From positions 13,356,850 through 13,420,849 of the forward strand of contig NC_134029.1 in NCBI RefSeq assembly GCF_964204645.1: a DNA stretch of 64,000 bases, written 5' to 3'. Of this stretch, positions 1 to 58,510 are shown one piece after another; the stretch's first letter is position 1; every line of letters starts with the position of its first letter. The translations under genes were made by a program, and so were the position numbers. The notes below the pieces were generated by a model. That model worked only from the letters and a program-made list of their open reading frames with translations, was not told the DNA's origin and made no database searches. Source of the stretch: Tubulanus polymorphus. Taxonomy: Eukaryota > Animalia > Nemertea.

Positions 1-601
1 TTGAAGATCTTAATTTACCAAATCGATCTCCATACTCTTCCATTTCTGGTTCTGAATATTTTGTGATTGTTTTAAATAATTTAACAACATTATGGTTAAA
101 TGTTAAAAGATTTTCATTTCTTTCTTCTTGTGTAACATTTTCTATTTCATTACTATTACTTATTCTTTCAATTCTAGGTGGTTCTACCCTAAACAAAGTT
201 GATTCTGCTAATATTCTACTTCTAAAAGTGATCTTAATATAATAATCCGAATAATCTTTCAAACGATAATAAAATTCAGCATCTAAATGTTTTAAATATA
301 GCGCTAAAAGGATGACACCTTCATTTGTTATATTGAATCCAGATTTTTCAAATACAGGTTGTAATTTTTCAATTAATTCATTATATTCTAATTCTTTTTT
401 TGTTATTTCTGTAACTTCATTTTTAGTATTTATCTTTGAACGTGTTTTATCAATATATTCAGGTGTAGGTAAATTAGAATTACGCGCTGATGAATTATCA
501 TTATCAATATTAGTTTCGGCATCATTATAATCATCATCAATATATCCTTCATTATTATTTCCCGTGCCTTCCATTTCGAAATCTCCTCCAACTTCTGCCA
601 T
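1..601 (-). CDS. N-terminal part of the long variable acidic/coiled-coil Polinton protein (runs off window)
   Basis: ATG at 601 in TAAATG; translates MAEVGGDFEMEG...YYRLKDYSDYYIKITF...ILAESTL, homologous to copy B 37656-38099 (YYRLKGDYYIDITY...ILSESTL); same position as 46279 in C. Confidence 0.75.
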   Translation of the reverse strand, partial: MAEVGGDFEMEGTGNNNEGYIDDDYNDAETNIDNDNSSARNSNLPTPEYIDKTRSKINTKNEVTEITKKELEYNELIEKLQPVFEKSGFNITNEGVILLALYLKHLDAEFYYRLKDYSDYYIKITFRSRILAESTLFRVEPPRIERISNSNEIENVTQEERNENLLTFNHNVVKLFKTITKYSEPEMEEYGDRFGKLRSS

Positions 602-617
602 TTACATAATAAAAAAA

Positions 618-1944
618 TTAAAATTTAAAATATAATATTCCTCCTATTACAATGCCTATACAAGTTAAAGCTAATTTAGCATTTTCATGGGATTTATTAT
701 CATCATTTAGTTTAATTATTTCATGTTGAATATTATCAGTTTTTATATCTTCTGATGTATTGTAATCTTTTATTTTAGAATCATTATTTGATTTAATATT
801 CTTAGTTTTAGTTTCTGTTGATTGAATATGTTTTTTATTTTTTTTCACCTTCCATTAGTTTTGGAGCAGTAATTATCTTTTTATTTATATCATTTAATCC
901 AAATGAATTATTTATTGTTGCAGTTTTAATTAGATTATTATAACCAATTATATTTCCCATCTTTAATACTAAATCACTAGAAATAATTAATAGATTAGGG
1001 CCTATACAAAAATTTAATCTAATATGTGATTTATCTAAATAATTTTGATATCTTACAATGTTTTCTGGAATAGATCTATTTTTATCATTATGAATGGAAT
1101 CTTCGAATAATACTTTGAATTGTTTCTGCGCATCGAATGAAGTGTTATCATTTCAAATTATTGGTGATCTTGTTTCAACTTGCGCACCTAAAATACATAT
1201 CAAATAAGTTCTAATAGATTGATTTATTCTTTGTATTCCAGCTTTAGTAAAACCTTCACTATTTTCTAAACTGAAATTAACCCAACCATTATTGTTTTGT
1301 TGTTGTATATTATTATATTATTTTGGTAATTCATTCCAATTTTGTGTTCTTATATCTGAATTTGTCATTATTTTTCCAAATTCTTTAGTATATAATATTC
1401 CTAATCCGCCCATTGTTCCAATTTTTGCTCTAAAATCTTTATTTGAATTAATATTAAATTCATTACATATTTTATAAAACTTAGAAAAATTAATATTATT
1501 ATTTAATTCTTTAAAATATTTTGAACCTGGTAAAGGACATTCTAATTCATCTAACATTAATTTTGTTTGAAAATATGTATGAAATCTAAAAAGTGATAAC
1601 ATCAATGGTAAACTTGGTTTGTTTAAATGATCATTCCAACTAATTCCGCATCCTGTTGTTGCGCAATAAACAGCAAAATTTAATTGGTTCTGCCAATACT
1701 TCATATTAGATTTTTAAAACCATTGTTTTGCCTCATTTAAATTTCTAAAATTAATTTCATAAACATTGAATATATTTTCCATCTTTACATGAAAATTATT
1801 ACTTTCAGGAACACAAATATATAAATCAATTAATGAATTTAAAACTTCATTTCTATATGTAATATCTTTATTAAAATCTATTGCTGGAATATTATATTTA
1901 ATTGATTTATTATATTGGAAAGCTTTTGGAAAAGTATCTACCAT
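618..1944 (-). pseudogene. Conserved Polinton protein of unknown function (462-aa family), disrupted
   Basis: Fragments 1714-1944, 1318-1704 and 618-848 align with intact 46296-47684 (MKYWQNQLNFAVYCATTGCGISW; C-terminal hydrophobic tail). Confidence 0.88.
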
Positions 1945-1960
1945 TTATATAATCAAAAAA

Positions 1961-2386
1961 TTAATAATTTATTAATTCTTTTAATAATTTATCTTGTTCT
2001 TCAACTGTTATATGACCATTTAAACTTATTATATAATCTAGTGTATTCTTTAATTTATTAATTTCTTTTATATTAGTTTTAATTTTTTCTTTATTACTTT
2101 TTATATTTAATTTTGAACTTATACCAGTTAAAACACTTGATGATAATCCTATCACACCAATTGATATAGCTAAAGGTGTTAATGGTGAAAATATTGCTAG
2201 AAATGTTATTACAGAACTAATTGTAACCGAACCACTTATAATCAAATAATATATAATTTTACTTTTTAAATATTTTTTCTTTTTAACTTTTAAATCACTT
2301 TCAAATTCTAATATTTGTTTTTCTAAATATATTATTAATTTAGTTTTATTTATATCATGAGGAATAATATCAATATTATCATCCAT
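1961..2386 (-). CDS. 141-aa predicted membrane protein (hydrophobic hairpin between basic helices)
   Basis: Near-identical to 35656-36078 and 47701-48135; hydrophobic IIYYLIISGSV...IGVIGLSSSVLTG. Confidence 0.85.
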   Translation of the reverse strand: MDDNIDIIPHDINKTKLIIYLEKQILEFESDLKVKKKKYLKSKIIYYLIISGSVTISSVITFLAIFSPLTPLAISIGVIGLSSSVLTGISSKLNIKSNKEKIKTNIKEINKLKNTLDYIISLNGHITVEEQDKLLKELINY

Positions 2387-2447
2387 TTATTTAACAAAAA
2401 AAATTACTAATTGGTAAATCTATACGCTACAAATATAACAATAACAG

Positions 2448-3729
2448 TGTAGCCGGTACGCGTCCGCGATTTAGTGTCATCCTCTGGTAGCGACCGATAG
2501 GTGTCGTGATCATCAGGTCTCCTCAATAAGCGTGGCTACAGGGTCCGCCTTGGTCCTGTAGTCCCGGGGAGTGGAACTACAAAGGGGAAATCCTCAGAAA
2601 GTTTCCGCCGAAGGGATGGACAGCTTCAGAGACAAAAAGTTTATAGTTCGTAAAAAAAAGGAATAGGAGAGAAGGAAGCGAGTGTCAGGGGTAAGTCTTA
2701 GCTATTGACCCAATTACACGGACCAGACAGGACAGGTGTCCGCCATGAGGTCTATCGAGTCAGGGCCCTTGACTCGATGTCGGAACCTCACAGTCACCCG
2801 AGCTCCGGCGCATCTTTTCCTCAGGTCCTCACGGTGTAACATCATATCGAGTGCCTCCATGCACGATCTCCTCGTCCTGGCGTAGTATCTTGCCCCCATC
2901 TATGTGTCTAAAGACACCCCGACACTCGCCACTTCATTAAGAATAAGGTTTATAGACCTGGCCTCAAGAAAGTGGATCCTACTTCGTCCAGACGCCACCC
3001 CCCACGACAGTGATAAGTCTTGTATTGAATAATATAGAAAATTATTATTTCAGAAACGAATAACTACTGTATAATTTATATACATTTTTACATATTGCAC
3101 GTGAAGTTTTTATCACAGTAATTGAATTTGTACACCTCATTCAAATAAAAAAAAAGGTTAAATAAATGGTTTCAAAAAAATCATAATCTATCTTAGTTAT
3201 AAATTATTTATAATCTATAAAAGGGCTAGTGCAAGGATCTCTCCTTCCTTGCAAAAATCCACGATTAATGACTCAATGGTCGCTAAATTTAGGCCCACGA
3301 AGACCCAAAATAATGCTCATGGCTTAAAAGTAAAAAGGTATAAGGAAAAAGCCGCCAGGTTGACTATTCCCGATGGATTAAAAATAGGTACATATCGTCG
3401 AGTTGAATAACGTCAGAGCCCGGCCTGACCTGGGTTGCCCCAGGCCAGGAGAGCGTGTGTTATTGTTTACCTCAAATCAATGTAGGTCGAGACGAGAGTG
3501 ACGTTTGCGCGCGCTGACCCATTTTTATAGATTCCGCGCAGTGTGACGTCACCGTGCATGGAGGATGACGTCACACAGCACAAAAAACATGGCCGCCGCG
3601 CAAAAGCTCCGAGTTTAAAAGTTTAGACGACTATACATTAAAAAAATGAGGAGGGCTCCGTAGCGGAAAAACAGAAACTATACATTAACGACAACATTTT
3701 TAAACTATTTAACAGGAATTTCCGCTACA
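2448..3729. mobile_element. Solo LTR, probably Gypsy-type
   Basis: Ends TGTAGC...GCTACA, 4-bp target duplication ACAG (2444-2447, 3730-3733); the empty site is visible in copy C near 48190; higher GC than flanks, no credible ORF. Confidence 0.8.
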
Positions 3730-4131
3730 ACAGTTCCACCTAAAATCCATATTATTTCATATTTCTGTTGTTCTTTACTGGGGGTATAATAATCTGATAA
3801 TTTAGGTTTGTAAATAAGGTGAGAGCGAAAAGTGATCAACCTAAAGTTTTGATTATTAAAAGCTGAAATTAATTATATTACTATATGCAGAGAAAATGAG
3901 GTGCGCAGAATGTGAAATGAAAGGGGCGAGCTAATTATCGCCCAAAAACATTACAATTAAAAAAATGAGGAGGGCTCCGTAGCGGAAAAACAGAAACTAT
4001 ACATTAACGACAACATTTTTAAACTATTTAACAGGAATTTCCGCTACAACAGTTCCACCTAAAATCCATATTATTTCATATTTCTGTTGTTCTTTACTGG
4101 GGGTATAATAATCTGATAATTTAGGTTTGTA
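3637..4131 (+). repeat. 176-bp direct duplication (3637-3812 / 3956-4131) spanning the LTR-Polinton junction, 143-bp spacer
   Basis: Both copies read attaaaaaaatgaggagggctcc...ccgctaca-acag-ttccacc...taggtttgta. Confidence 0.92.
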
Positions 4132-4458
4132 TAGATGTAATTTTTCTTTATTGGTTACCGCGTTATATAAACTCATTGCAGCATCAACTGATTGAAAATC
4201 TCTGTGTGAAATCTTCTGATCATATAATTCCTTGTTAATATAATCCATATAGTTTTGTCTCTTTTCTCTATATACTTCTGCAGCTTTATTATATTTCTCT
4301 AATGCTAAGTTATGTCTTTTTTGTTCTGTTAATGAACCATTTTTATCAATATGTTTAAATAAATATCCACCACCAGTAAATGCTAAAGCGTTAACAATTG
4401 CCGATCCTATAATAGTTATAACTGCAGAAGCCATTTATTTAGTAAAATAATTATGCAT

Positions 4459-4680
4459 TTATATAGGAGGAATATATTTTTGTTTTTCCAAATAATCAAT
4501 AGTTAAATTAGATAAAGTAACTGCTAATGTTAATTTTAAAATATCATTGATATCAAATCTATCAACATTAACACTTTCCATTTTAAAAACTTTTTTTAAT
4601 ACCATTGAATAACCAACAGTTCCAACTGATAGTAATGCTCCATTATATAATCCAGTTATTATCCACTTATTATCACTCAT
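4459..4680 (-). CDS. 73-aa small hydrophobic Polinton protein
   Basis: Near-identical to 34968-35189 and 48603-48824; TAAATG start. Confidence 0.85.
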   Translation of the reverse strand: MSDNKWIITGLYNGALLSVGTVGYSMVLKKVFKMESVNVDRFDINDILKLTLAVTLSNLTIDYLEKQKYIPPI

Positions 4681-5037
4681 TTATTTATCAAAAAAATTAC
4701 TATCTTCAAAATATTTAGTTAACTTAGTTATAATTATTTCAACATTTATTTCATTACTAGTTTCATTTGTGTATATTTCAATTATTATTTTTTTAATATC
4801 ATCGATGATAAAATCTTCATCCAATTCATAAAATCTTAAAGATTCTCTAATTAAATTAGTAATCTTTTCTACATTTAAAGTTGCTTTATCTATTGTTTTT
4901 TCATACTCAAATGTTGTTTCATTAGAAAATGCAATATTTTTGATATGTGTTATTACATCAGTAATGTTAAATTTAATTTCTTTCTCACGTTTAAAATCAA
5001 ACCCAAAACATATACTCGGTTCAACAGTTATATTCAT
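4681..5037 (-). CDS. 118-aa acidic Polinton protein, unknown function
   Basis: Intact here; homologues frameshifted at 34610-34967 and 48825-49166. Confidence 0.8.
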   Translation of the reverse strand: MNITVEPSICFGFDFKREKEIKFNITDVITHIKNIAFSNETTFEYEKTIDKATLNVEKITNLIRESLRFYELDEDFIIDDIKKIIIEIYTNETSNEINVEIIITKLTKYFEDSNFFDK

Positions 5038-5061
5038 TTATATAATGAAAAAATTACTCTC

Positions 5062-5795
5062 TTATCTTAAAACTAATTCATATATCACAGGAAAGTTATT
5101 CAAATCAATTAAATATCCATTATGATTTCTTATTTCTAATTTAAAATTATTAAATTTAGGAATGCAAGGTTTAAAATCACATTCTGTTACATTATAATTT
5201 ATTTGAGTTCCAAATTGTTCAACATTTTTTAGCGGTAAAATATTTAGTATACTAGAACTACAAATTGTTTCTTTAGTTGCTTCAAATGTTTTTGTAGGAT
5301 CGATTAAATTGCAATAAATATAAAACTGTGTAAAAGGTATTATATTTGAATTACCATCTACGTTTCCTGTAACAGTTTGTGGTTTAATTCCTAACAGTTT
5401 AGCTGATGGTTTTCTTACCATAAATGCATGTTTGCTTTCATCATCTAACTTTATTTTAATTTTATCAGAACTATCACTTTTTATAAATCTAATTGAAAAT
5501 TTACCTTCACTTCCAAGTTTTAATCGTGCTCTCCGATTAATTTCTTGGGCGTATGTTTCTAAATTATATAACCCCGGTTTTAAAAATGGATGAAACCATT
5601 TATTTATATTTCTAATATGAATTAAAAAGACTCTATGTTCAAGAGTTTTATCCGATATATTATAAAAAGTATTACATAAACTTATATTTACTAATTTTAA
5701 ATCTACACAATTCTTAAATTCTCTATGTAATTGAACTAATAAATTATGTGATTTATAATTTGTAAGTCTTCTATTAATTCTTTTAATTCTACCAT
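5062..5795 (-). pseudogene. Minor capsid (penton) protein, frameshifted near the 5' end
   Basis: Aligns with intact 49184-49945; short deletion near 5775; FYIYCNLID and GYLIDLNNFPVIYEL motifs. Confidence 0.82.
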
Positions 5796-5812
5796 TTATT
5801 TTACATATTTTC

Positions 5813-6166
5813 TTATTCGAAATCTATTTCATGGTGGCCTTTTACATTCTTACCTTTGTATATGAAATAGAAATCACCTGAACATAATTCTTCTAGATCT
5901 TCGCTTGATAATCTATGAAATCTATCCGGTAAATATGTTCTGAATTTATATGTATTTCCTTTTAATCCTTCATATTCTAAGTGTATAACTAATTTATCTC
6001 CAAATTGGTTAGTAACTGTATCAATATTTGTAATTAGATATTTCTTATGGATTATTAATTCTGTTAACTTCTTAAATTTATAATCTACTGATTTGACATT
6101 TGAAGTATCTTTTATTCTATCTAAAAATAATTTGTTGTTCTCACTGTTTGCTTGTTTACTCTCCAT
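5813..6166 (-). CDS. 117-aa protein, possible OB-fold/ssDNA-binding accessory protein
   Basis: Intact ORF after pPolB; homologue with a stop at 49963-50315; pattern F..L.EL....Y.I...T..FG..L...L...YLP.RF...YKG. Fold is inference only. Confidence 0.6.
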   Translation of the reverse strand: MESKQANSENNKLFLDRIKDTSNVKSVDYKFKKLTELIIHKKYLITNIDTVTNQFGDKLVIHLEYEGLKGNTYKFRTYLPDRFHRLSSEDLEELCSGDFYFIYKGKNVKGHHEIDFE

Positions 6167-6195
6167 TTATAATACATATTTTTATTAAAATTTGA

Positions 6196-8735
6196 TTAAC
6201 ACGTTAGAATCCTGTTCATAAACTCATTTTCTTTTGTTTCTTCTCTTTTAAATTTTAAGTATTCATCTAAATTGCAACCATAAGCAACTGTATGAATTCC
6301 ATCATCTAAAATATATCTTTTATCATCAAATGGGTTTAGACTTATGTTCTCTATCTCTTCAATAAACATTTCATGATCTTCTGATCTTAAACATCTCATT
6401 TTATGTTCTTCATTGAATATACAATTGATGTAATCTTTGAAATGAATATTCTTTTCTACTACACTTTTGGTTATTCCTTTTAACTTTTTAGCTACATGTT
6501 CTTTAGTTCTATATGAATACATTTTAGATCTAATTCCTATGAACTCTATCATTTCTTCACCACCTAATTCATCTTTGAATTTACCAGGAACTTTTTTATT
6601 ATCATTGCTAAACAATTCACGATTTTTAGGATAATTACTGAAATCAAAATGATGTTTTAATGTTTTTAAATCATCTGTTATGTTATTAGTTTTTATCTTT
6701 AATATGTAACTGTCAGTATCAAAATATAAGATTTCTATATGTTTTTCTCCAAAATGAGGTTGTAATACATTATAATAGAATTCATACATCAATAGCTTTG
6801 ATATTTCTAAAACTGAAGCACCAACATAAATTGGTTTATCAAATTTCATTGATGTTCTTCTCATTTTAACTGCAGCTCAATTTTCATCAAATATTCTGTT
6901 ACCTAAAAACTTAGGATATGTTTGTAAATGCCTAATTCTTTTACCATTACTGACTAACTCAATATCATTTCTATTTCTAAATTTTCACAAGTCTTACCAT
7001 AGAATGCATTATTCATTAGTTTGAAGAAATCTTTCTCGAAATCAGTTTTAGCTTCAGTTCTCTGTTTGGTGTTAAAATCTATATATTTTTCTAACCATTT
7101 AGATTGACTAAATGAAATATATCTATGTATTTTTTTAGGATCATTCCTTGTTTTAGATAAAACTTTAACATTCTATAATGTACTACATAATTATATTTAT
7201 CTTCTTGAGTTACCATTAACTTTTCTGTATGAATATGATTTTCGGGTTTAATTCTTTTTTGATAACTTGATAATTCTTCATGAGTTACAGTTTTATGTTC
7301 GGGACAGTATGCTAGATTTCTAGATTCAAATTTAATATGTTCAGGATATTCTAAATCTACAACAAAGAAGTAACCAGTATCTGAATCATCTGCAATATCT
7401 AGAATTCTTTTCTTCCAATCAAATTTATCATTATTTTCATGTTGTAAAACTTCACTTATTTCAAATACTCCATAAGGTTGTGGTTCCATCATTGCCCAAC
7501 CATACCAATTATTTGCATCTATATATAGTAACTTATATCCAGGATTATCATTTACATTGAAATATCTATCGCCTAATACACCTGAAACTCCTCCTCTTAT
7601 AGATTTTTCAAATAATAATAATTGATCTATATTTGTTAACAAATCCATTTTTATATCTGTAAATTTTAATCCACAATCCCATGTTAAATCTGGACTAGCA
7701 TAACAATGACAAGGATCAATGTTAAAATATTATAGGTTTACATCTCTAAACCTTTCGAATATATCAGTTAATAATAATACATCTGATTTTAAATATAAAT
7801 CTACTAATTGCCCATGATTTTTCATTCCAAAATTATTCCAAATATTCAATATTCTATTATATACTTCATCTTTAACATATTCATTTTTTAATTCATCATA
7901 GAATAGTTCTTTTAATAATTCAGTTATATTGAAATCATTATGTGATTTATAAAATGAATATTGAATTGCGCCTTTATCTCATTAATTGAAAATCATCATT
8001 ATTTTGGTAATGTTGCTTTAATATTTTTAATTCATCATCAACTAATGATTTGATAAATTATCTAATGAAGCGCTTAAAAATCTATATGAATCTATAAATC
8101 TTAAACAACCAAATTGGAAAGATAAATAATTCTCAGATGTTTTAGCTAACATTTTAGATTTATAAGTTGGCATTTTATCTTTTGGTCTCTTTGAATTTAA
8201 TCTTTCTATTTCATTATTGATTTCTTCTATTTCATGACATAGTTACTTGAAGAATAAATGAGCATCATACCCTGATAGATTATGAAATATTACAGAAACG
8301 AAATTGATTTTCTTAGCATGTAAGTTACAATTCTCATGCGCTGCCCCTCTAAACTTTCCATTCGAATGATCATGGTCTCTAACTTTTTTATCTCTAAAAT
8401 TAAATATCTGTTCTTTTAATAATTCAGTTATATTGAAATCATTATGTGATTTATAAAATGAATATGGAATTGCACCTTTATATCTCATTAATTGAAAATC
8501 ATCATTATTTGGATTATGTTGTTTTAATATTTTTTATTCATCATCAACTAATGATTTTGTTATCTAATGAACTGTTTAGAAATCTATATGAATCTATAAA
8601 TCTTAGGCACCCAAATTGGAATGATATATAATTCTCAGATGTTTTAGCTAACATTTTAAATTTATAAGTTGGTATTTTATCTTTTGATCTATTTGAATTT
8701 AATCTTTCTATTTCATTATTAATTTCTACTATTTT
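6196..8735 (-). pseudogene. Protein-primed family B DNA polymerase (pPolB), intein-free allele, 5'-truncated with internal duplication
   Basis: Motifs HNLSGYD, YIDANNxYG, KLMNNAFYGK, YFDTDS, RSKMY; several frameshifts and stops. Confidence 0.93.
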
Positions 8736-8737
8736 AT

Positions 8738-11300
8738 GGCGCTGAAATCGTGCTAGGAACCGACGATACACGTTTTGAAAATTTTCCTGGCCCGGTGTCT
8801 GCTGCCGGGTCCTAAACCGTGCTTTAGTCTTTACGGAATTTTTTCGGGTTACGCCTACAAGGTCGTTGTCTTCGGCTTCCTTCAACATTTCATTTTCAAC
8901 TGGCATCAGACCACAATTAATAGGTTAGTAGCTTGAAGATGCGTATGGCCGGACCATAGAAGCTAGAGTGAAGAAGAGGTCCCCCATAAATGTTGCTATA
9001 ATTTCGGCAAATGAGATAGAGGTCTGAGCTCAACTTTTGATCGATTGATGGAGGACCTCATTTCCTTGGTGACATGAGTCGGAATCTTCAGTTGAATCAG
9101 GAGGAACAATAATTGTTCAGGACACACTGTATAACATGATACTTACTAGCCAAAAATTAGTTCATCAAAACTGCATCAGTTGCAAAAACTACCATCATGC
9201 TTTCCCAAAATGGAATATAAATAAATAATATTTTATTTTCATTTGTCTGTGCATCATGATATAAATTGTTGTTATTGTTTTATGTACATGTATGTACCCG
9301 TATCAGCTAACAATGAAGTTTTCACTTCATTTGAATAAATTCTTAACTACAGTAATTCTAATTCTCAATTGTTTTTATTATTGTTTGGTTATTCCTTGCA
9401 ACTTCTCATTTCCACGTTTCATACAAGAAGTAGTTGAATGAAAGTACAGTTAGGCTGAACCTGACAACCCATAATAAGTGCTAGCATCGAGATTTGATTA
9501 TTTCGATTTTATTTTCGGTGTCATTGAAATTCGTAAATAAAGGTTCAATTGTCATTGTACTTAGCATAGCTTAGATTGGGTTTCATATTTCTACATTTTC
9601 TACAAGGAGGCCTTAAAGGGTCGTCCCCGGGTAGAGGTCAAAACTTGGTTTACATTCTCAAGTTGCTGGAGACTACCATCTGCATTCATACCTCGATTTG
9701 TCTGGCCTATTTGTTTGAGAGTCGAAGAACATTTTCCCATACACAGGCTTGGCTTTAGTGTAGATGAAGGCTAGGCACTGCACATTGTGGATTAACTGGA
9801 ACTCAAAACTCTCAAAATGAAACGAGTCAACAAGAAAGATCCAATAATTGAACGTTTATCTAACTATATTATTTAACAGCTTAATAGATATACATTATAC
9901 ATTATACACAACAGAAATCAGTTCTACATTTTATCCAAATCAAGCGTTAAAGCCACAGATTCGCTTAGCTTGGGCTTGAATTCTGGTTCCATTGCTTCGT
10001 ATTCTATTGAAATCCCCTTTGTTACCTCGGAATATCGCTTAGCTACAATTTTAGAAATTAGACTACAAATTTGGTCCCAGGAAAACCAAGTAAAGTGGGG
10101 TACTATTGTACATCAGCTGTTGACTTATTTTTCTCTGGTTGAATCAAGTTATTACTGAATGAAATATAATCACTGCTGCTACAAGAAGTCTTTTCTCGGT
10201 ATCTGTATGTCCATCTTAGCAAATCAACTTGGTCCATGATTCCTCCTTTTATAGAGATGAAGGCTAGGCACTGCACATTGTGGATTAACTAGAACTCAAA
10301 ACTCTCAAAATGAAACGAGTCAACAAGAAAGATCCAATAATTGAACGTTTATCTAACTATATTAATTAACAGCTTAAGAGATATACATTATACATTATAC
10401 ACAAAAGAAATCAGTTCTACATTTTATCCGGATCAAGCGTTAAAGCCACAGATTCGCTTAGCTTGGGCTTGAATTATGGTTCCATTGCTTCGTATTCTAT
10501 TGAAATCCCCTTTGTTACCTCGGAATATCGCTTAGCTACAATTTTAGAAATCAGACTACAAATTTGGTCCCAGGAAAACCAAGTAAAGTGGGGTACTATT
10601 GTACATCAGCTGTTGACTTATTTTTCACTGGTTGAATCAAGTTATTACTGAATGAAATATAATCACTGCTGCTACAAGAAGTCTTTTCTCGGTATCTGTA
10701 TGTCCATCTTAGCAAATCAACTTGGTCCATGATTCCTCCTTTTATAGATAGTCTAAAAATAAGAATTGTTACATTTTCCTAACAGATGCTATGTCATTTC
10801 TTTAAAAAACATGATGATTTTCTCACCACAGCAAATAAATTATTCGCAATTGTTAAATCCATTCCATGCGCACAATGAATTAAAAAAAAATTAAGTAAAA
10901 TCCCTTTTGTCCAAAAGCCGCATCATCATTATAACTAGCTATCAAATTTAACTTACCTCAAGTCTCCAACAGAGAATACCACAGTCGCCCATAGTCATGC
11001 GTGACGTGTTGACAAAAGAAAAGTGGTTCTCATAATCATATTTTATATACATAGAAATGTTCAAATAAGATTTTTTCGTCTTGTAGAAGTAAACCATATT
11101 CTTGGAATATTCAGCATAGTGTTTAAAGTTGGCTTGTGCGGTTGTGATAGGGTTTTGATACTCCATACATACTGTTTATGCATGTCTCTTTAACCAAAAA
11201 TTAGATAGAGACTAAAGCAAAGGTTCAGGACTCGGCAGCGGTCCCGGCCCGGAAAAAATTGAAAACGTGTATTGACGGTTCGTAGCACGATTTGAGCGTT
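8738..11300. repeat. Pair of ~93-bp diverged inverted repeats (8738-8830 and 11208-11300), likely DNA-transposon ends
   Basis: aaatcgtgctaggaaccgacgatacacgttt...gctttagtct is the reverse complement, with mismatches, of agactaaagc...aaacgtgtattgacggttcgtagcacgattt; TTTCAGCG subrepeats follow at 11320-11403. Confidence 0.7.
9762..10747 (+). repeat. 493-bp tandem duplication
   Basis: 9762-10254 repeats at 10255-10747 with few substitutions; ORFs at 9970 and 10463 are offset by 493. Confidence 0.93.
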
Positions 11301-37508: not shown

Positions 37509-37524
37509 TTTTTTTATTATATAA

Positions 37525-42014: not shown

Positions 42015-42029
42015 CTATTTATATACCTA

Positions 42030-42410: not shown

Positions 42411-42435
42411 ATTTGAATTAAATATAATTAATATC

Positions 42436-43242: not shown

Positions 43243-43274
43243 TTATTATATAAATATCTATTAAAGTTAAAATT

Positions 43275-44516: not shown

Positions 44517-44558
44517 TTATTTAACAAAAAAAAATTAATTATTTATTTTCTATCATGG

Positions 44559-46279: not shown

Positions 46280-46295
46280 TTATATAATAAAAAAA

Positions 46296-47684: not shown

Positions 47685-47700
47685 TTATATAACTAAAAAA

Positions 47701-48135
47701 TTAATAATTAACTAATTGTTTTAATAATTTATCTTGTTCTTCAACTGTTATATGACCATTTAAACTTATGATATAATCTAGTGTATTCTTTAATTTATTA
47801 ATTTCTTTTATATTAGTTTTAATTTTTTCTTTATTACTTTTTATATTTAATTTTGAACTTATACCAGTTAAAACACTTGAACTTAATCCTAACACACCAA
47901 TTGATTTAGCTAAAGGTGTTAATGGACTGAATATTGCTAGAAATGTTATTACAGAACTAATTGTAACCGAACCACTAATAATCAAATAATATATAATTTT
48001 ACTTTTTAAATATTTTTTCTTTTTAACTTTTAAATCATTTTCAAATTCTAATATTTGTTTTTCTAAATATATTTTTAATTTAGTTTTATTTATATCATGA
48101 GGAATAATATCATTATTATCAACTTTATCTTCCAT
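47701..48135 (-). CDS. 144-aa predicted membrane protein
   Basis: Intact; three copies. Confidence 0.85.
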   Translation of the reverse strand: MEDKVDNNDIIPHDINKTKLKIYLEKQILEFENDLKVKKKKYLKSKIIYYLIISGSVTISSVITFLAIFSPLTPLAKSIGVLGLSSSVLTGISSKLNIKSNKEKIKTNIKEINKLKNTLDYIISLNGHITVEEQDKLLKQLVNY

Positions 48136-48153
48136 TTATTTAGAAAAAAATTA

Positions 48154-48576
48154 CTAATTAGTAAACTTATAAGCAACAAATATAACAATAACAGTTCCGC
48201 CTAAAATCCAAATTATTTCATATTTCTGTTGTTCTTTACTTGGGGTATAATAATCTGATAATTTAGGTTTGTATAGATGTAATTTTTCTTTATTTGTTAC
48301 TACGTTATATAAACTCATTGCATCATCAACTGATTGAAAATCTCTATGTGAAATCTTCTGATCATATAATTCTTTATTGATGTAATCCATATCGTTTTGT
48401 CTTTTTTCTCTATATTCTTCTGCAGCTTTATTGTATTTCTCTAACGCTAAGTTATGTCTTCTTTGTTCTCCTAATGAACTATTTTTATCAATATGTTTAA
48501 ATAAATAACCACCACCAGTAAATGCTAAAGCGTTAACAATTGCCGATCCTATAATAGTTATAATTGCAGAAGCCAT
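48154..48576 (-). CDS. 140-aa protein with hydrophobic termini
   Basis: Intact; three copies. Confidence 0.85.
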   Translation of the reverse strand: MASAIITIIGSAIVNALAFTGGGYLFKHIDKNSSLGEQRRHNLALEKYNKAAEEYREKRQNDMDYINKELYDQKISHRDFQSVDDAMSLYNVVTNKEKLHLYKPKLSDYYTPSKEQQKYEIIWILGGTVIVIFVAYKFTN

Positions 48577-48602
48577 TTATTTAGCAAAAAAAAATTATGC
48601 AT

Positions 48603-48824
48603 TTATATGGGAGGAATATATTTTTGCTTTTCTAAATAATCAATAGTTAAATTAGATAAAGTAACTGCTAATGTTAATTTTAAAATAACATTTATATCAA
48701 ATCTATCAACATTAACACTTCCCATTTTAAATACTTTTTTTAATACCATTGAATAACCAACAGTTCCAACTGATAGTAATGCTCCATTATATAATCCAGT
48801 TATTATCCACTTATTATCACTCAT
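48603..48824 (-). CDS. 73-aa small hydrophobic protein
   Basis: Intact; three copies. Confidence 0.85.
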   Translation of the reverse strand: MSDNKWIITGLYNGALLSVGTVGYSMVLKKVFKMGSVNVDRFDINVILKLTLAVTLSNLTIDYLEKQKYIPPI

Positions 48825-49166
48825 TTATTTATCAAAAAAATTACTATCATCAGTATATATAGTTATCTTAGTGATGATTAATTCGACTTTTATTTCATTA
48901 CTACTTTTATGATTATCATATATTTTGGTTAATATATTTTTAATATCATCAATAATTCAATCTTCATTTAATTCATAATATTCTAAAGGTGATTTAATTA
49001 AATCAATTACTTTTTCTATATTACAATTTTCTTTATTAATCATTGATGCATTGTTAAATGATTTACTTTTTATATCAGTAATTACATCATTTAGTTTAAT
49101 TCTCATTTCTTTACCATGTTTAAAATCAAACCCAAAACATATACTCGGTCCAACAGTTATATTCAT
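48825..49166 (-). pseudogene. 118-aa family protein, divergent allele, frameshifted
   Basis: MNITVGPSICFGFDFK start and FFDK end shared with A/B; middle diverged. Confidence 0.78.
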
Positions 49167-49183
49167 TTATATAGTGAAAAAAA

Positions 49184-49945
49184 TTACTCTCTACATCTTA
49201 TAACTAATTCATAAATTACAGGGAAATTATTTAAATCAATTAAGTATCCATTATGATTTCTAATTTCTAATCTAAAATTATTGAAACGAGGAATGCATGG
49301 TTTGAAATCACATTCTGTTAAATTATAATTTATTTGCGTTCCAAATTCTTTAACATTCTTCAATGGTAAAATGTTTAGTAAACCAGAATTACAAGTTATA
49401 TCTTTAGTTGCTTCGAATGTTTTTGTAGGATCGATTAAATTGCAATAAATATAAAAATGTTTGTAAGGTATTAAGTTTGGTGTTGTAGCGTCAATATTTG
49501 TAAAAGATCTATCTGGAAGAATTCCTAACAGTTTAGCTAAAGGTTTTTTTACCATAAATTTATGTTTTTCACTATTAGACAACCTTATCTTTATTCTATC
49601 AGAACTCTCACTTTTTAAAAATCTAATACTAAACCCAGAACTACTACCTAATTTGTGCCAGGCTTTTCTATTAATTTCTTGTGCTAATGTATCTAAATTA
49701 TATAACCCCGGTTTTAAATATATATAGACCCATTCATTTTTACCTTTATCAAAAATCAAAAAGGCTCTATGTTCAATAGTTTTATTCGTTATATTATAAA
49801 AAGAATTACATAAACTTATATTAACTAATTTTAAATCTACACAATTCTTGAATTCTCTATCTAATTGTACTAGTAAATTATGTGATTTATAATCTGTAAG
49901 TCTTCTAGAATCAACAAATATTCTGTATTCTTTTAATTCTACCAT
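49184..49945 (-). CDS. Minor capsid (penton) protein
   Basis: IFVDSR start, NSFYNI, PGLYN, FYIYCNLID, FRLEIRNHNGYLIDLNNFPVIYEL, the pattern of Polinton/virophage pentons; intact 253 aa. Confidence 0.85.
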   Translation of the reverse strand: MVELKEYRIFVDSRRLTDYKSHNLLVQLDREFKNCVDLKLVNISLCNSFYNITNKTIEHRAFLIFDKGKNEWVYIYLKPGLYNLDTLAQEINRKAWHKLGSSSGFSIRFLKSESSDRIKIRLSNSEKHKFMVKKPLAKLLGILPDRSFTNIDATTPNLIPYKHFYIYCNLIDPTKTFEATKDITCNSGLLNILPLKNVKEFGTQINYNLTECDFKPCIPRFNNFRLEIRNHNGYLIDLNNFPVIYELVIRCRE

Positions 49946-49962
49946 TTATTTTACATATTTTC

Positions 49963-50315
49963 TTATTCGAGTCTATTTCATGGTGCCCTTTTTCATTCTT
50001 ACCTTTGAATACGAAATAGAAATCACCAGAACATAATTCTTCTAGATCTTCACTTGATAATCTATGAAATCTATCTGGTAAATATGTTCTGAATTTATAT
50101 GTATTTCCTTTTAATCCTTCATATTCTAAGTGTATAACTAATTTATCTCCATAGTTATTAGTAACTGTAACAATATCTGTAATTAGATATTTCTTATGGA
50201 TTGTTAATTCTGTTAACTTTTTGAATTTTTAATCTACAGATTTTACATTTGTTATATCTTTAATTCTATCTAGAAATAATTTGTTTTTCCCACTGTGCGT
50301 TTGTTTACTCTCCAT
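49963..50315 (-). pseudogene. 117-aa family protein with premature stop
   Basis: Matches 5813-6166; in-frame TAA near 50230. Confidence 0.8.
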
Positions 50316-53300
50316 TTTAATAACATATTTTTATTAAAATTTGATTAACACGTTAGAATTCTTTTCATTATCTCGTTCTCTTTTGTTTCTTCTCTTTTAA
50401 ATTTTAAGTATTCATCTAAATTGCAACCATAAGCAACTGTATGAATTCCATCATGCAGAATATATCTTTTATCATCAAATGGGTTTAGACTAACCTTTTC
50501 CATTTCTTCAATAAACATTTCATGATCTTCAGATCTTAAACATCTCATCTTATGTTTTCTAACTTCTTCATTGAATATACAATTGATGTAATCTTTGAAA
50601 TGAATATTCTTTTCTACTACACTTTTGGTTATTCCTTTTAACTTTTTAGCTTCATGTTCTTTAGTTTTATATGAATACATTTTAGATCTAATACCAATGA
50701 ATTCAATCATTTCTTCACCGCCTAATTCATCTTTGAATTTACCGGGAACTTTTTTATTATCATTGCTAAACAATTCATGATCTTTGGGATAATTACTAAA
50801 ATCAAAATGATGTTTTAATGTTTTTAAATCATCAGTTATGTTATTAGTTTTTATCTTTAATATGTAAGAATCTGTATCAAAATATAATATTTCTATATGT
50901 TTTTCTCCAAAAAGTGGTTGTAATATATTATAATAGAATTCATACATTAGTAATTTTGATAATTCTAAAACTGAAGCTCCAACATAGATTGGTTTATTGA
51001 ATTTCATTGATGTTCTTCTCATTTTAACTGCAGCTAAATTTTCATCAAATATTCTGTTACCAATGAACTTAGGATATGATTGTAAATGTCTAATTCTTTT
51101 ACCATTACTAACTAACTCAATATCATTTCTATTTCTAATATTTTCACAAGTCTTACCATAGAATGCATTATTCATTAACTTGAAGAAATCTTTTTCGAAA
51201 TCAGTTTTAGCTTCAGTTCTCTGTTTGGTGTTAAAATCTATATATTTTTCTAACCATTTAGATTGACTAAATGAAATATATCTATGTACTTTTTTTAGAA
51301 CCATTCCTTGATTCAAATAAAACTTCAACATTCTATAATGTACTACATAATTATATTTATCTTCTTGAGTTACCATTAACTTTTCTGTATGAATATGATT
51401 TTCGGGTTTAATTCTTTTTTGATAATTTGATAATTCTTCATGAGTTACAGTTTTATGTTCGGGGCAGTAATCTAGATTTCTAGATTTAAATTTAATATGT
51501 TCAGGATATTCTAAATCTACAACAAAGAAGTAACCAGTCTCTGAATCATCTGCAATATCTAGGATTCTTTTCTTCCAATCAAATTTATCATTATTTTAAT
51601 TCTGTAAAACTTCAGTTAATTCAAATACTCCATAAGGTTGTGGTTCCATCATTGCCCAACCATACAAATTATTTGCATCTATATATAATAACTTTTATCC
51701 AGGGTTATCATTTACATTGAAATATCTACCCGCTAATACACCTGAAACTCCTCCTCTTATAGATTTTTCAAATAATAATAATTGATCTATATTTGTTAAC
51801 AAATCCATTTTTATATTTGTAAATTTTAATCCACAATCCCATGTTAAACCTGGTGATGAATAACAATGACAAGGATCAATATTAAAATATTTTAGGTTTA
51901 CATCTCTAAACCTTTCGAATATATCGGTTAATAATAATACATCTGATTTTAAATATAAATCTACTAATTGCCCATGATTTTCTATTTTGAAATGATTCCA
52001 AATATTCAATGTTCTATTATAGACTTCATCTTTAACATATTCATTTTTTAATTCATCATAGAATTGTTCTTTTAATCAGTTATGTTAAAATCATTATGAT
52101 TTTTATAGAAAGAATATGGAATTGCTCCTTTATATCTCATTAATTGGAAATCATCATTATTTGGGTAGTGTTGTTTTAATATCTTTAATTCATCATCAAC
52201 TAATGATTTTGATAAGTTATCTAATGAAGTATTTAAAAATCTATATGAATCTATAAATCTTAGGCAACCAAATTGGAATGATATATAATTCTCAGATGTT
52301 TTAGCTAACATTCTAAATTTATAAGTTGGTATTTTATCTTTTGATCTATTTGAATTTAATCTTTCTATTTCATTATTGATTTCTTCTATTTTATGACATA
52401 ACTGTTTGATGAATAAATGTGCATCATATCCTGATAGATTGTGAAATATAACTGGTACAAAGTTAATTTTCTTAGCTTGTAAGTTACAATTCTCATGTGC
52501 AGCGCCTCTAAACTTTCCATTCAAATGATCATCGTCTCTTACTTTTTTATCTTTATAATTAAATATCTTTTCACAATAATAACATTTATCTGCAAACGCA
52601 AATTCTTCTTTATCTTCTTCTGTCATTATAATTTCTATATTTGTATTCAATAATTTACTTAATCTTATTTCATATTCAATTAATAAGTCACAAAAATGAT
52701 TGATAACATTTTCATTTCTATAATCATAATATTCACTTTCAATTAGTTCTGGATAATCAGATTTTATATATAACCCGAAAGCAGCAGCTGATTGATGAAT
52801 CTTTTTAATAGTATTTGTTTTTGGTGGTTCTTCAGAATAATCATTTTCATTAGAATTTAATTTCTTTCTCATATAATATATTTCTTTTCTATCTTGATCA
52901 GTTAATTCTTTATTTAATGATTCAAAATCTCCATATATTACAAATGGTACTTTATTTTTGTAATCATATTTTTTTAATTCTAATATTTTATCTTTTTCAT
53001 TTGGTAAAACTAATTTACAATAATCATGATTTTCACATAATTGTTTATGATTTAGTAATGTAATTTCATTACTGAATCTATGTAAACATTTTCTAAATAG
53101 ATATATTTTATTATGGTGATCACTTTCTGTTCTAAAGAATAAATCTATTTGTTTAATCCACATATAATGATTCTCATAATATAATATATCTATAACATCA
53201 TTTGAATCATAATCTTTTGATAGGTATAAAGGTTCTAATGTATAATGTTTTATATTGTTACCTTTTGTATTTGGTAATTTGATTAAATCAAATACATTTA

Positions 53301-54785
53301 TTCTGTAATTATTATCTCTTTCTATTTTTGGGATGTTTTTAATTCTCACAGGATACTTATCTATCTTATAATTATTTTCAAATGGTTTATAATGAGTTAA
53401 TCTAAAACTATGTGTAATATCTTCTGTTGGATGTAAACAACTTATTATAGCACATAGAAAACATTTATCATCTTCATTTTGTACATTTATTACAGCATTA
53501 GTTGTAAATGGTAGTTTTATATAACTCGATGCTTCAATATCTAGTTCTTTATAATATGATACATTATTTTCATCTATTGGTTTTGATTTAGTTAACTTAT
53601 TATATGTTGTGTTATAAACATGTAAAGTCATAAATATTATTTCATCAAATATTAAACCAGATCCTTCAAAATATTTTTCTTCTATTTTAGTTTTTACTTC
53701 ATTATAACATTTATCTAATTTATCATCTATATGTTGTTTAGATATAATATGTTGTGAATGAGAATTTATATTATATATTGGTTTATCTTCAGATTTTATA
53801 AACTTAACTTTTGATGAAATACTAATTTTAGGGTATTCAACATCAGTTATTAGGGTTTTCTGTTGCTTCACAGAAAACCCTATTGAAATTCGCGTGATTA
53901 TTATTATTTTTTTTTCCCTTTTCCACATAGTTTTTGTGAAAAGTGTAAAGGCTTCCTTACCTTACCGCTGTCGCCGATACAATCCGTATGATATCCTTCA
54001 GCTAACTTCAATCTCCAGATACTGCATGGGAATTTTGATAAATCCACGTTATAAAGGCACTGTCGAGCCGTAAACATCGGAAATTTGGCCCCGTTCAATT
54101 AGTAGCCATGTTGTGTTTTCTTTCCGAAATTTCTCTCTTCTTTATGAGGAAGAGCTATCGAATTATTCCCTCTCTTCTCCACAATCAATTTCAAAGTCAA
54201 TTTTATGAATTTATTGCTCAGCGGGTCCGAGTCCAAGAGTTTACGAGTCCGGCGTTCGCGTGTCTGACAGGTTTACGGGCATTTGTTTGTTACCACTTTA
54301 ATATTTTTGATTTCTTGTTATTCCGGTTATTTCATTTAAGTATATTGCTGATCAGTTCATGTAACCAAAAGCGTCAATAAACAGATTTTGAATTGATCAA
54401 GTTTAAATCAAGGTCGTTGAGTCGCGGAGGGCTGCTAGAATTACGTTCGTCTCAGAGAGAGAGAAAACAAACGACAGAAAAGTATCAGGTGATTATCGAT
54501 AGCCTACTACGGTACACACAGTTGACAAACAGTTAGGCCTGTGCCAGTTGGTGCGTACTGGGAATAAATATACTGGTTGGTCAGTTGGTTCGGTTGTGAA
54601 GTGTGGAAGCTAAGAGAAAGCCTACCGCAGTACGGGTATTTATTTGTCTATAGGCCTATTATATAGAAGCCAATACCAGTTAGTACGTAGTTGTTACTCG
54701 TACGTGACTGTATGGTGATCTCCACAGGTTAACCGTACGTGAGTTCCCTACTAACGCCGTACGTGAGTTCCTCTAGTAGCCAATA

Positions 54786-55003
54786 CGGTAAAAGTGCAGC
54801 TCCGCACCTCTCCGCGTAAACGGTTCAATCAATTACGTTAAATATCATTGTTTCAGATTCAGAATGTCATCAGCAATTCAGTACGTTGCCATTGGTTAAT
54901 TTTAAGATATCTTCACTAGAGAGAGTAGAAAGATTTTAGCCACGATTCTGTCATTCAGCAGATTGCGTCAATCACGAGAGGTGCGGATCTGCACTTTTAC
55001 CGT
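54786..55003. mobile_element. MITE with ~28-bp TIRs
   Basis: acggtaaaagtgcagctccgcacctctc ... gagaggtgcggatctgcacttttaccgt; related end near 18178. Confidence 0.75.
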
Positions 55004-55027
55004 CAATTACCATTTTTTAAGTACGAA

Positions 55028-55354
55028 GTTGTTACCCGTACGTGCCAGTGACTGTACGGTGATATCCACAGGTTAACCGTACGTGAGTTCCCTAAAAAGG
55101 CTGTGAGTTCCTATAATCTGCAAACGTGCATGCGTGAAAGAATAGAGTTTGGGTTAGGTGAGGCTAGGCTATTTGTAAATCAAATTTCATCCACCCTGCA
55201 GTTACGTTCTGTGGCACAGTGGGTAAATCACTGGACTGCAACTGGATTTTTTTTTCGTTTGGTTTCGAATCCCAATATTGCAAGTCTGAGCGTCAACATA
55301 CTCACATACGGCTAACCTGTAGAAATCACCGTACAGTCACGTACAGGTAACAAC
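55028..55354. mobile_element. MITE with ~55-bp TIRs and an internal tRNA-like segment
   Basis: gttgttacccgtacgtg...ggttaaccgtacgtgag vs ctcacatacggctaacc...cacgtacaggtaacaac; another left arm at 54690. Confidence 0.7.
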
Positions 55355-56557
55355 AGCGTTTTAAGTACCGGGTATTAAGTGAGTACGACAAGCCTACCAT
55401 GCCTATGTACTACAAACACAACTTTTTCCCTCTCGTCGGCGGTCATCCTCCTACAATGATGTTACTATAACTGGTGCAATTATAACATGGATAGGATTTG
55501 GCCAGGACTAATCTAAAGTTTAATTCAGTCTATGTACTAATTCACTCGATAGGCCTATTTTTAAAACAGGAATATTTATTTATTACGTACGCATAAAATT
55601 TGATTATTTCAACCCCCCTCTCCCTCTGTACGCAGAATCTGCCATTTTTTCATGTACATTAAGCATTACAGTACGTAATTGCCCTGACCCCTCCCCCTCC
55701 CCTAATGCGTACGTAATAAATGAATGATCCCACAATACAGTGAAGTATTCACACGCAGAAAGGCTAATTGATTTGAGCCATGTGATTAAATTTGGCCGGG
55801 CCTTCTCTGACCTGCTGACATTAATAGTCAATGTGGTCACGGCTTGTATACCAGAAATCATTGTAGGCCTGTACATTTTGCTGTTCGTAGGTTTGGTATA
55901 CCGATTTCTCCATTCTTGACTGATAAGTGTACGGTACAGCTGTACGCATTATACAATTGTTCCAATGGGAATAGGGCCTATTGATTGGGCTTATTATTTC
56001 CTGCTATAGAATACTGAAATAAACCTAATGTTCATTCAAATATCCAACATCGGTGAAAGTTTGATTACTGTATACATGTACTGTAGGTTTTCATGTTGTA
56101 TGAATATTTTGCAGTTCAAATGGGTATGATGCTGATTTTAATGTCAAACGCATGAGGTTAGATGGTCAAGGACCGTCAACGCCGAGATATCTTTCTTCGA
56201 CCGATGTTGTACCATAGAAGATCTGATTCTTTTAACTCAAGGAAAGTGATTCAACACGATCGACATAACACTGGAATAGGTTTGCAGTAACTAACGGTTC
56301 ATTTCATTTAGTCCTATGTACTTTTTAGCCAATTTGGATTTGATTGTAATTGAAAGTCTGGAACTGTTAACAAAAGACAAGTTGAAAAAACACAAGTTAT
56401 GCTTGATTCTCATGTTCAAATTTAATTCAAATTTATTTTATTACATCATATTTACAAGGCATATCATTGGTTCATACAGTAATAAAAATTAGGGCAGAAC
56501 AAATATTATTACAGAAACTCCAAAAAGGCAATGAATTTCTATAACTATATGAACATT

Positions 56558-57040
56558 ATTTTTAGCCCACTTGGGACTTTAGTCCCAGCGGGCTATTGCG
56601 TTCACTTTTCGTCCGTCGTCCATCCGTCATCAGAAATCAGTTATTTTAGGAAGTTTCGAAGACGCTTCAATGTAATGTCTTGATATTTGGGTTACACATG
56701 TATCTACCCTAGACACATCTTCAGCCCAAAAACTGGCTGTCAGAATCGAGATGGCCGACTGGCAGCCATTGTTATTCGCCAAAATCAACACTTTTTACAC
56801 ATTTTTGAACTTTTTGAGGGAAATTTTGAAGATGCTTTGATCAATTACCTTGATCTTTCGGATATATGTGAATGCCCCCCGGGCCCATCAGCATAACAAA
56901 AATTGGGATACGAACTCAAGATGGCTGTCCTATGACCTTTTTTAGTGTCCAAAAATGTCAATTTTGGCCCGAATTCTGAGTTTGCTATTTCTCATTGCAG
57001 TTTGTGATGGGTATTCTTTGAAAAGGGATGTTTTATACCT
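56558..57040 (+). mobile_element. Truncated copy of the 14700-16204 Helentron-type family
   Basis: tttttagcccacttgggactttagtcccagcgggctattgcg... is the reverse complement of the 16204 end and continues in homology. Confidence 0.85.
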
Positions 57041-58510
57041 TTGATACCTGAATTGTTAGATTGTTGAGCATTTGGAACCACTTCCCAAGTGGGCATGGTG
57101 TCCCTGGACCCCTAGTTCTAATAACTCAGATCAAGAGTGACTCTCCCGTTTATTAGGAAACACACGCAACTTGTGGAATAGGTTTGATTTACACACATGT
57201 TGCAGGTATCAATTGTTTATCACTATAGAATTTGTAATCCATAAAAGCCAAAATCAACATCAGCCGGAAACCCAGACCAAATCAATTCATAATTTATTGA
57301 TTGAATCTACACTACAATATATGTATTTATTCAAATATTTCAATAAAAACATTAACTTCTTAAATCTATTCTAAATCATAATACGTTCTTATCGGTGCAT
57401 TAACTCAATCTATCGGCTCAGCAGGTGCTTAAGATGAGTTCTTAATAGGACAGATTCATTTTTAAGGATGGTGATAATACAGTATCATGATGTTTGAATG
57501 CCAAAATAAATGCCTGGTCAAATATATTAATATTTGTGATTGTACGTCCGCGTATGTTCAGTTTCAAAGCTGAATCATATTTGACGTTTACACAGTGGTA
57601 GCATATTAGGTTCGAATCTGTCAATGCATTTTATTCTATGTATCGATATTTCAATTTACTACAATTCCCATCATTCTGAATGGCTTTACAGAAAACCCGT
57701 CATCGCTGCTTTGCAGCTATATTTATTTTTATTATTTCTTTCATATTTTCTAAATGTTTTTTATTTTCTTCTAATGTTTTTCCTTTATGAAATTTAAACT
57801 CGATAGCTGCTGGGCCAATATCACTCTTAAATGCTTCGGTTATCTCTATATCTTTTTTATTATCTAATGAATTAATATAATTTCTTACATCTTCCATGTA
57901 TGGTCTTTTATTGTTTAATTTATTTTTTATGCTTTTAATTGTCTTCTGTTTCTTATCATTATCTTTATCAAAATAATCTTCACCTAAAATATCATTATTC
58001 TTATTTCTAGACTTTTAGATTTTAAATGTTCATTATAATATCTTTTATCACTGAATGATTGATTATATGTATCACATTTGTATGTTTCTTTTTCATTCTT
58101 TAATTCATCTAATTTAGTTTCTAATATATCATCTTTATATTCTAGTTTCAATATATTCTCTAAATGTGTTTTAGTTTTTTTGTGTCTTGCTTTTTGGGAT
58201 TTATCTATATTGATATTACATGTTGGACAGTAGTACTTATTTGCTTCCATTTTAATACTAAATTTTTTATTAAAATTGATTTTAGAAGTTCAATGATTTA
58301 TATCATGTATTATTTCAATCACACTTTACTAACACTTTAATGTTTAAACATCTAACTCACACAAATATGAATATTGAAATAATGTTGTAAATATATACTT
58401 TTATATCTATTCTATAAGAGCTCACACTTTACTCACACTTTTATATTGAATAATCTATCAATTTATATGTTATTCATTTATATTTTATTCATATATATGA
58501 ATATTTTAAG

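Follow-up and report, generated by a model that had tools for sequence, protein, structure and literature searches.

TAAATG at the gene starts of a Polinton lineage in a nemertean worm and its likeness to poxvirus late promoters

Three Polinton copies and their gene starts

The stretch of DNA analysed here (the window) comprises 64,000 nucleotides of contig NC_134029.1 (positions 13,356,850 to 13,420,849; assembly GCF_964204645.1) from the nemertean Tubulanus polymorphus, and positions below count from its first letter. Its three AT-rich stretches, with a G+C content (GC) of 22-29% against 30-47% in the DNA around them, are copies of one element. Judged from their predicted proteins, which include a DNA polymerase B that is protein-primed (pPolB), an rve integrase, a capsid protein and an A32-like packaging ATPase, the copies are Polintons, and nearly all of their genes start at the hexamer TAAATG.

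Copy A (1-8740, minus strand) is partial, since the window edge truncates it, and has an interruption at about 2450-4047; it shares 81-94% identity with the other two copies. Copy B (27630-42400, plus strand; its left edge at about 27631 is where contig coverage climbs) carries the polymerase gene, a zinc-finger gene on the opposite strand, a series of small genes and the genes for the major capsid protein (MCP), integrase and ATPase, most of them with stops or frameshifts. Copy C (42400-58500, minus strand) has foreign DNA inserted at about 53930-57500, and within the structural block the copies are mostly 81-97% identical. The element is very repetitive in the host species and occurs in many variants, with 19,203 contigs of one sequencing run mapping onto 19.9 kb, a figure that is not a copy number. 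A run presumed to contain RNA gave five short, partial matches and no match, respectively, on two stretches, a result without bearing on expression.

In copy B, the polymerase gene (27753-32812, plus) lies in pieces and matches Pfam DNA_pol_B_2 (7.8e-9), with a zinc-finger N-terminus and an endonuclease-VII-like insert. The MCP gene (38997-40242, plus) has a homologue (P0001, 77% identical) whose predicted structure (pTM 0.78) matches the capsids of PBCV-1, an iridovirus and the virophages Sputnik and mavirus (E 4e-13 to 4e-9); on this model, the capsid protein is a predicted double jelly-roll. The integrase gene with chromodomain (40276-41402, plus) is broken, its part from 40306 to 41399 being 57-66% identical to the intact integrase of a related metagenome locus, which matches Pfam rve (1.7e-9) and Chromo; the ATPase gene (41403-42014, plus) is an open frame matching Pox_A32 (3.5e-12). 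The zinc-finger gene ZF466 (32739-34139, minus) diverges from a gene of 253 amino acids (aa) that starts at 34208 and matches DUF5901 weakly (E 0.02, Pfam); by the look of it, we take this 253-aa gene to be the candidate for a single jelly-roll penton. No Pfam match to an adenain-type protease was found among 43 open reading frames of the window and 53 proteins of relatives, all from incomplete elements, and neither terminal inverted repeats nor a 6-bp target duplication were found between the candidate ends of these truncated and interrupted copies.

A preliminary description had placed exact TAAATG at 28 gene starts, and all of them are correct in position and strand, as are three variants (TAAATA-ATG at 34208 and TAAAATG at 50315 and 58250). 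Spread over three related copies, these 31 sites represent 14 independent genes, in line with the approximately 14 non-homologous genes first proposed, and not 28 independent cases. The exact motif is present in at least one copy for each of the 14 genes; if the three genes with a variant copy are judged by that copy, the count is 11/14. Other ATGs carry TAAATG far less often, namely 83/1408 in element DNA (5.9%) and 27/983 in the flanking host DNA, and shuffling the 40-base upstream windows 20,000 times gave the motif at 1.1 of the 14 genes on average and at six at most, so that the enrichment over internal ATGs and shuffled background that had been proposed as a check is borne out. A stricter pattern, picked after seeing the data, matched 16/28 starts and 0/111 other TAAATG sites in the window. 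When homologues of diverged loci are aligned, the match at these ATGs begins within residues 1-10 for 11/14 genes and at residue 7 or 17 for the 253-aa gene; this check did not reach the starts of the polymerase and coiled-coil genes.

We divided the sites into class I, in which a T-run and a spacer precede TAAATG, and class II, with an A-rich upstream element. Unless noted otherwise, sites lie on the plus strand in copy B and on the minus strand in copies A and C. Class I sites are found, in copies A, B and C respectively, at the coiled-coil/transmembrane (TM) gene (599-620, 37506-37527 and 46277-46298), the 462-aa gene (1942-1963, 36088-36109 and 47682-47703), the 144-aa TM gene (2384-2405, 35637-35658 and 48133-48154), the 140-aa TM gene (4432-4453, 35195-35216 and 48574-48595), the 73-aa gene (4678-4699, where TAA doubles as the upstream stop, 34949-34970 and 48822-48843) and the 118-aa gene (5035-5056, 34591-34612 and 49164-49185), and also at the MCP gene of copies B (38978-38999) and C (44514-44535). 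Class II sites precede the 253-aa gene in copies A (5793-5817) and C (49943-49967), the 117-aa gene in copy A (6164-6188), ZF466 in copy B (34137-34161, minus) and a 268-aa zinc-finger gene in copy C (43240-43264); class II variants with TAAAATG are seen in copy C at the 117-aa gene (50313-50337) and the polymerase start (58248-58272). The remaining sites are all in copy B: a T-run with TAAATG at the polymerase start (27734-27755), a T-run with TAAATA-ATG at the 253-aa gene (34186-34210), an A-rich stretch with T at -10/-11 before the TAAATG of the integrase (40257-40278), and an A-rich stretch before that of the ATPase (41384-41405), whose TAA doubles as the integrase stop. The claim that a T-run usually precedes the motif thus stands for most genes, while four genes have an A-rich upstream element instead. 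Only at the 73-aa gene and the ATPase is the motif part of a stop/start overlap, which agrees with the two such junctions described before.

Two further observations concern the same sites. The polymerase starts of copies B and C belong to different promoter classes. In all three copies, a second TAAATG (at 35187, 4456 and 48600) arises from the stop of the 73-aa gene and opens a seven-codon frame across the next promoter.

Shape of the signal and its distribution among relatives

Searching with 33 aligned capsid homologues, we recovered 39 metagenome loci. A quick tree was built from 35 capsid segments, without five loci and three short window pieces, and in it the window copies cluster with L001-L012 and L020 with a support of 97. 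Gene starts in these loci were called blind to the motif, as the first ATG of non-overlapping frames of at least 70 codons; the near-duplicates L003, L021 and L034 were dropped from the start counts, and L035 and L037-L039 were excluded. TAAATG occurs at 46/57 starts of the 12 clade loci, compared with 74/1823 of their other ATGs, at none of the eight starts of the sister pair L013/L014, and at 3/123 starts of 18 distant Polinton loci. Because the distant loci are more decayed, we added a comparison limited to six orthologous core genes with homology-supported starts, which gave 29/34 for the clade (copy B included), 0/5 for the sister pair and 2/41 for the distant loci.

These counts bear on whether the motif could be an artefact of AT-richness, of TAA-ATG packing, or of one junction having been copied around the element. 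Element DNA is indeed 22-27% GC, and adjacent class I promoters are locally almost the same in sequence. At the same time, chance reached only six of 14 genes in the shuffles, and clade members of 36-44% GC, in diverged sequence, keep the motif at 9/12 starts against 8/371 other ATGs, while the sister pair lacks it at 29-30% GC. Packing was rejected as well: TAA is the upstream stop at two types of junction in the window and at 1/30 tandem junctions with TAAATG in relatives. As the motif is kept in GC-rich relatives and missing in AT-rich sisters, and as stop overlaps are rare, AT content and gene packing are excluded, and we regard an artefactual origin, which the GC-rich relatives and AT-rich outgroups refute, as highly improbable. 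By these counts the motif is a trait of the whole clade, at low and higher GC alike. In the relatives, five divergent gene pairs have TAAATG at both of their starts, with gaps of 19, 28, 28, 30 and 72 bases.

A distant subclade (L022, L023, L024, L025, L033 and L036) starts its core genes with TATATG or TATAATG (19/51 starts end in TAT or ATA). These starts resemble the looser late starts of mimivirid-like and prasinovirus-like contigs, or the TATA initiator of African swine fever virus, and the subclade perhaps has another helper.

The shape of the signal was derived from 60 starts, 14 of window genes and 46 of relatives. The T-run extends from -13 to -7, with T at -9 in 55/60 and at -10 in 47/60 starts, against 34% and 36%, respectively, at 74 internal TAAATG sites; A is found at -15 in 80%, and a spacer of about six bases, its last base being A in 88%, separates the T-run from TAAAT. 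Directly after TAAATG, at +4, G is present at 44/60 starts and at 16/74 internal sites. The A-rich element of class II occurs at 9/60 starts, mostly of the same genes across loci (by orthology, three loci for the 268-aa gene and two each for ZF466 and the 253-aa gene), and the split is imperfect, the probable penton gene having class I in L009.

This layout agrees with published descriptions of vaccinia, as the preliminary description had proposed when it likened the sites to a poxvirus late promoter with its T/A-rich run, short spacer and TAAAT(G). In vaccinia late promoters TAAAT(G) covers the start codon, the tenth base upstream is a conserved T among weaker Ts (PMC11980589) and the T core lies 5-7 bases away (PMC5294985); intermediate promoters lack the dominant T and are A-rich farther upstream (PMC11980589). 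Shared with the poxvirus promoters are an ATG-overlapping TAAAT(G), a T core with one dominant T, and an A-rich second class without that T (PMC11980589, PMC5294985, PMC4542343); by this analogy, class II fits intermediate promoters. The difference is in the carrier, which here is an integrating Polinton on the 15-kb scale without an RNA polymerase, and in the reach of the predicted promoters, which stand at all genes including those for polymerase and integrase. An early-type promoter class was not seen among the clade starts.

The host's own RNA polymerase II (Pol II) might also read such a signal, if the initiator were fused to the start codon and the messages were leaderless or had a very short 5' untranslated region, perhaps with the aid of the element's zinc-finger proteins; the pox likeness would then be convergence on AT-rich initiators. 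The elements are integrated in nuclear DNA, are very repetitive and encode zinc-finger proteins, which is consistent with this possibility, and so is TATAAA at 24/60 starts. A TATA box, though, sets the RNA start about 25-30 bases downstream, and a box touching the ATG, as at these 24 starts, would begin the RNA beyond the ATG; moreover, 28/60 starts read AATAAATG instead. We therefore rejected the TATA box as an account of the motif. We also rejected a splice acceptor, as no more than 7/60 starts have an AG in the 12 bases next to the ATG, and a Kozak context. The favoured G at +4 does suit ordinary scanning, but T at -3 is a weak base for scanning ribosomes. The coding strands also tolerate AATAAA, at about five per kb, a comparison made without a Pol II control (113 seen against 116 expected in 20.9 kb). 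Taken together, we consider transcription by Pol II unlikely. A 5' poly(A) leader made by slippage would explain why T at -3 goes with a favoured G at +4, and such leaders, produced by RNA polymerase slipping on AAA, are described for vaccinia and for yeast linear elements (PMC6211774, PMC6831550, PMC7163114).

Which polymerase would read the signal

We propose that the window copies are integrated and decayed remains of a Polinton that encodes a capsid and belongs to a lineage in which nearly all genes start at TAAATG behind a positioned T-rich or A-rich element, and that this signal is likely a promoter for the RNA polymerase of a poxvirus-type cytoplasmic virus infecting at the same time. 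The element's way of life would then be that of the virophage mavirus, with an animal as host. That some helper's viral polymerase transcribes these genes, counting all three variants of the idea considered in this section, is quite probable in our judgement, since the layout matches vaccinia late promoters and is found clade-wide at any GC, and since TATA, Kozak and splice readings fit badly. That the helper is specifically of poxvirus type has, we think, about an even chance of being right; it is the best fit, although three motif scans gave no clear helper, non-pox giant viruses with TAAATG starts exist, and the intein points to contact with a giant-virus polymerase of a non-pox type. The earlier claim that these genes are built for a pox-like viral polymerase rather than for Pol II is accordingly well supported, by inference, as regards a viral polymerase, and "pox-like" is its best fit only. 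Deoxynucleoside kinase genes in two clade members (L004, 10340-10981, and L007, 2898-3377) were counted in favour of the poxvirus-type helper. A wider and more doubtful proposal, offered tentatively, is that the clade consists of endogenous virophages of undescribed poxvirus relatives in marine invertebrates, with an intermediate/late programme copied from the helper, and that the start motifs of sister lineages record helper switches.

Several observations weigh against a poxvirus-type helper. The likeness to poxviruses rests on published descriptions, and the peak at -9, counted from the first T, is one base off their tenth nucleotide. Autonomous transposition in the nucleus would account more readily for the high repetitiveness in the host species, and distant Polintons likewise have very short spacers and do not avoid AATAAA, so neither trait sets the clade apart. 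Coral polintoviruses of other clades were reported as expressed in host RNA-seq (PMC11131425). No pox-derived transcription genes were found among the 43 window frames and 53 relatives' proteins. In IMG/VR, a search for a helper by promoter motif returned 87 stretches, the best with TAAATG at 5/12 starts; a class II scan returned 74, the best with 4/12; and a two-way promoter scan returned four, all attributable to chance, with no clear helper in any of them. A panel of 80 non-pox giant-virus loci, fetched by their polymerase with an intein-biased pattern, has TAAATG at 115/964 starts overall and at about a third of the starts in a few of the loci, and the motif is thus not specific to poxviruses.

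This last result leads to the possibility that the element leads the same virophage-like life with a non-pox giant virus as helper, iridovirus-related or from elsewhere in the Megaviricetes, with late promoters ending in TAAATG. Four uncultured giant-virus contigs (L068, L089, L116 and L143, a post hoc selection) have TAAATG at the starts of 17/45 genes, some of them behind T-runs. The position of the T is loose there, with T at -9 in 65% of the 17 starts in the picked loci and in 50% of the 115 in the panel, as opposed to 93% of 46 in the clade; initiators are mixed (ATA, AAT, AAA or TAT before ATG); and iridovirus and ascovirus promoters are described as unfused to the ATG (PMC5294985).

The intein bears on the same question. 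It lies in the polymerase of copy B (31292-32360, plus), at the YFD/S site of the polymerase's catalytic motif, has a LAGLIDADG endonuclease and is broken; neither copy A nor copy C has it. In animal genomes, inteins are a rarity. Among the top 150 relatives of this one, 113 sit at the matching YGD/S site of RNA-primed polymerases, and related inteins are present in 60/80 giant-virus loci, where the fetch pattern favoured them. By its insertion site and relatives, the copy B intein is allelic to the inteins of giant-virus PolB, which shows an apparently old DNA contact with giant-virus-type polymerases of a non-pox type; in P0164, the single intein host that was examined, the polymerase is Pol-delta-like and not pox-like, another point against a poxvirus-type helper. 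On the other hand, the intein shares only 33-50% identity with its giant-virus relatives and makes up a separate branch, so that it may be an old acquisition. Overall, we consider a non-pox giant-virus helper rather unlikely. Three further sequences (P0203, P0146 and P0162) look like additional Polinton-borne intein copies, and a word-based search with the second half of the intein gave no matches.

A third source of a viral polymerase could be a pGKL2-like element residing alongside in the cytoplasm, or a larger sister element with genes for RNA polymerase and capping. The pGKL1 type of element relies on the polymerase of another element. Yeast linear elements are described as derived from polintons (PMC11161782), and they use TAAAN initiators, make slippage leaders and have a polymerase placed near those of poxviruses (PMC6211774), a common origin of the two polymerases being disputed (PMC10328495). 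However, what the promoters of pGKL depend on is an early-type upstream element and not a T core (PMC6211774), and Pfam found no RNA polymerase gene, and no capping gene was seen, either in the window or among the scanned relatives, most of which are partial contigs. We regard such a source as improbable. Compared as systems, pGKL1/2 share pPolB and TAAAN initiators with the present element (PMC6211774, PMC6831550), from which they differ in lacking a capsid and integration, in their early-type upstream element and, for pGKL2, in having a polymerase of its own.

The frequency of TTTTTNT, examined as a terminator signal, gave a mixed picture. It is depleted in the coding strands of relatives (8 seen against 18.9 expected, and 2 against 9.2), where long A-runs are equally depleted, and on a looser set (12 against 31.3), with no depletion in the coding strands of the window (23 against 22.6).

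The sharing of helper promoters is itself established for protist virophages, including Sputnik, mavirus and PgVV (bioRxiv 10.1101/2022.07.28.501842; PMC10328495; PMC6401483). These and Gezel-14T resemble the present element in being small and capsid-encoding, with one conserved viral-type motif per gene, and mavirus, which integrates, resembles it further in its pPolB and rve integrase; they differ in their protist hosts, Imitervirales helpers and other motifs, as against a Polinton gene set, an animal host and a pox-type motif here. Polinton-like viruses in occlusion bodies of entomopoxviruses have been proposed to hyperparasitise poxviruses of animal hosts (Barth et al. 2024, PMC11296320). 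They were linked to poxviruses by co-isolation and shared genes, those described have tyrosine recombinases or no integrase, and the main text of that paper, supplements apart, contains no occurrence of "TAAAT", "promoter" or "motif". Animal Polintons/Mavericks, adintoviruses and coral polintoviruses share pPolB, an rve integrase with chromodomain, an A32 ATPase and a double jelly-roll capsid (PMC8502044, PMC11131425), and differ in the adenain-type protease that we did not find here and, for the distant relatives, in lacking the motif. The word "promoter" does not occur in the available text of Starrett et al. 2021 (PMC8502044), Stephens et al. 2024 (PMC11131425), Krupovic et al. 2024 (PMC11161782) or bioRxiv 10.64898/2026.10.13.758929, and we found no report of pox-type promoters in Polintons in a literature search that mostly did not extend to subscription journals. 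What would be new, then, is virophage-type promoter mimicry with a pox-type motif in an animal Polinton.

If a poxvirus-type helper is indeed involved, the mavirus model, in which an integrated virophage is woken by a giant virus and is possibly protective, would reach from protists to animals, and pox-like viruses would be predicted in marine invertebrates, of which we met no record in the literature examined. Polinton promoters could then predict unseen large viruses of animals, and the lineage would offer a living parallel to the step that brought yeast linear elements to pox-like transcription. A precisely spaced, clade-wide promoter makes it directly testable how animal Polintons are transcribed, and whether they lead an autonomous viral life in the nucleus or parasitise larger viruses.

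Other features of the element and its surroundings

The polymerase gene of copy B (27753-32812) is only 72-80% identical to those of copies A and C (that of C at 50345-58250), compared with 89-97% in the structural block, and this gap, as read from the alignments, is apparently module swapping inside the family. Three protein scans of IMG/VR yielded no relatives of the element's proteins, and a homologue of the 118-aa protein had no usable match in the structure atlas. The 462-aa protein (46296-47684) is predicted to have a confident fold (pTM 0.75), to which nothing in BFVD or among PDB representatives corresponds. The 144-aa gene with two TM segments (35656-36078 and 47701-48135) shows a weak match to the SLATT domain (E 0.006-0.001).

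At the junction of copies B and C (42015-42430), the end of the ATPase gene, short repeats and a C5-T5/6 stretch form two tandem units that are 69% alike, possibly an element end. Directly to the left of copy B, at 25693-27365, lies an intact-looking DDE transposase of the pogo/Tc5 type.

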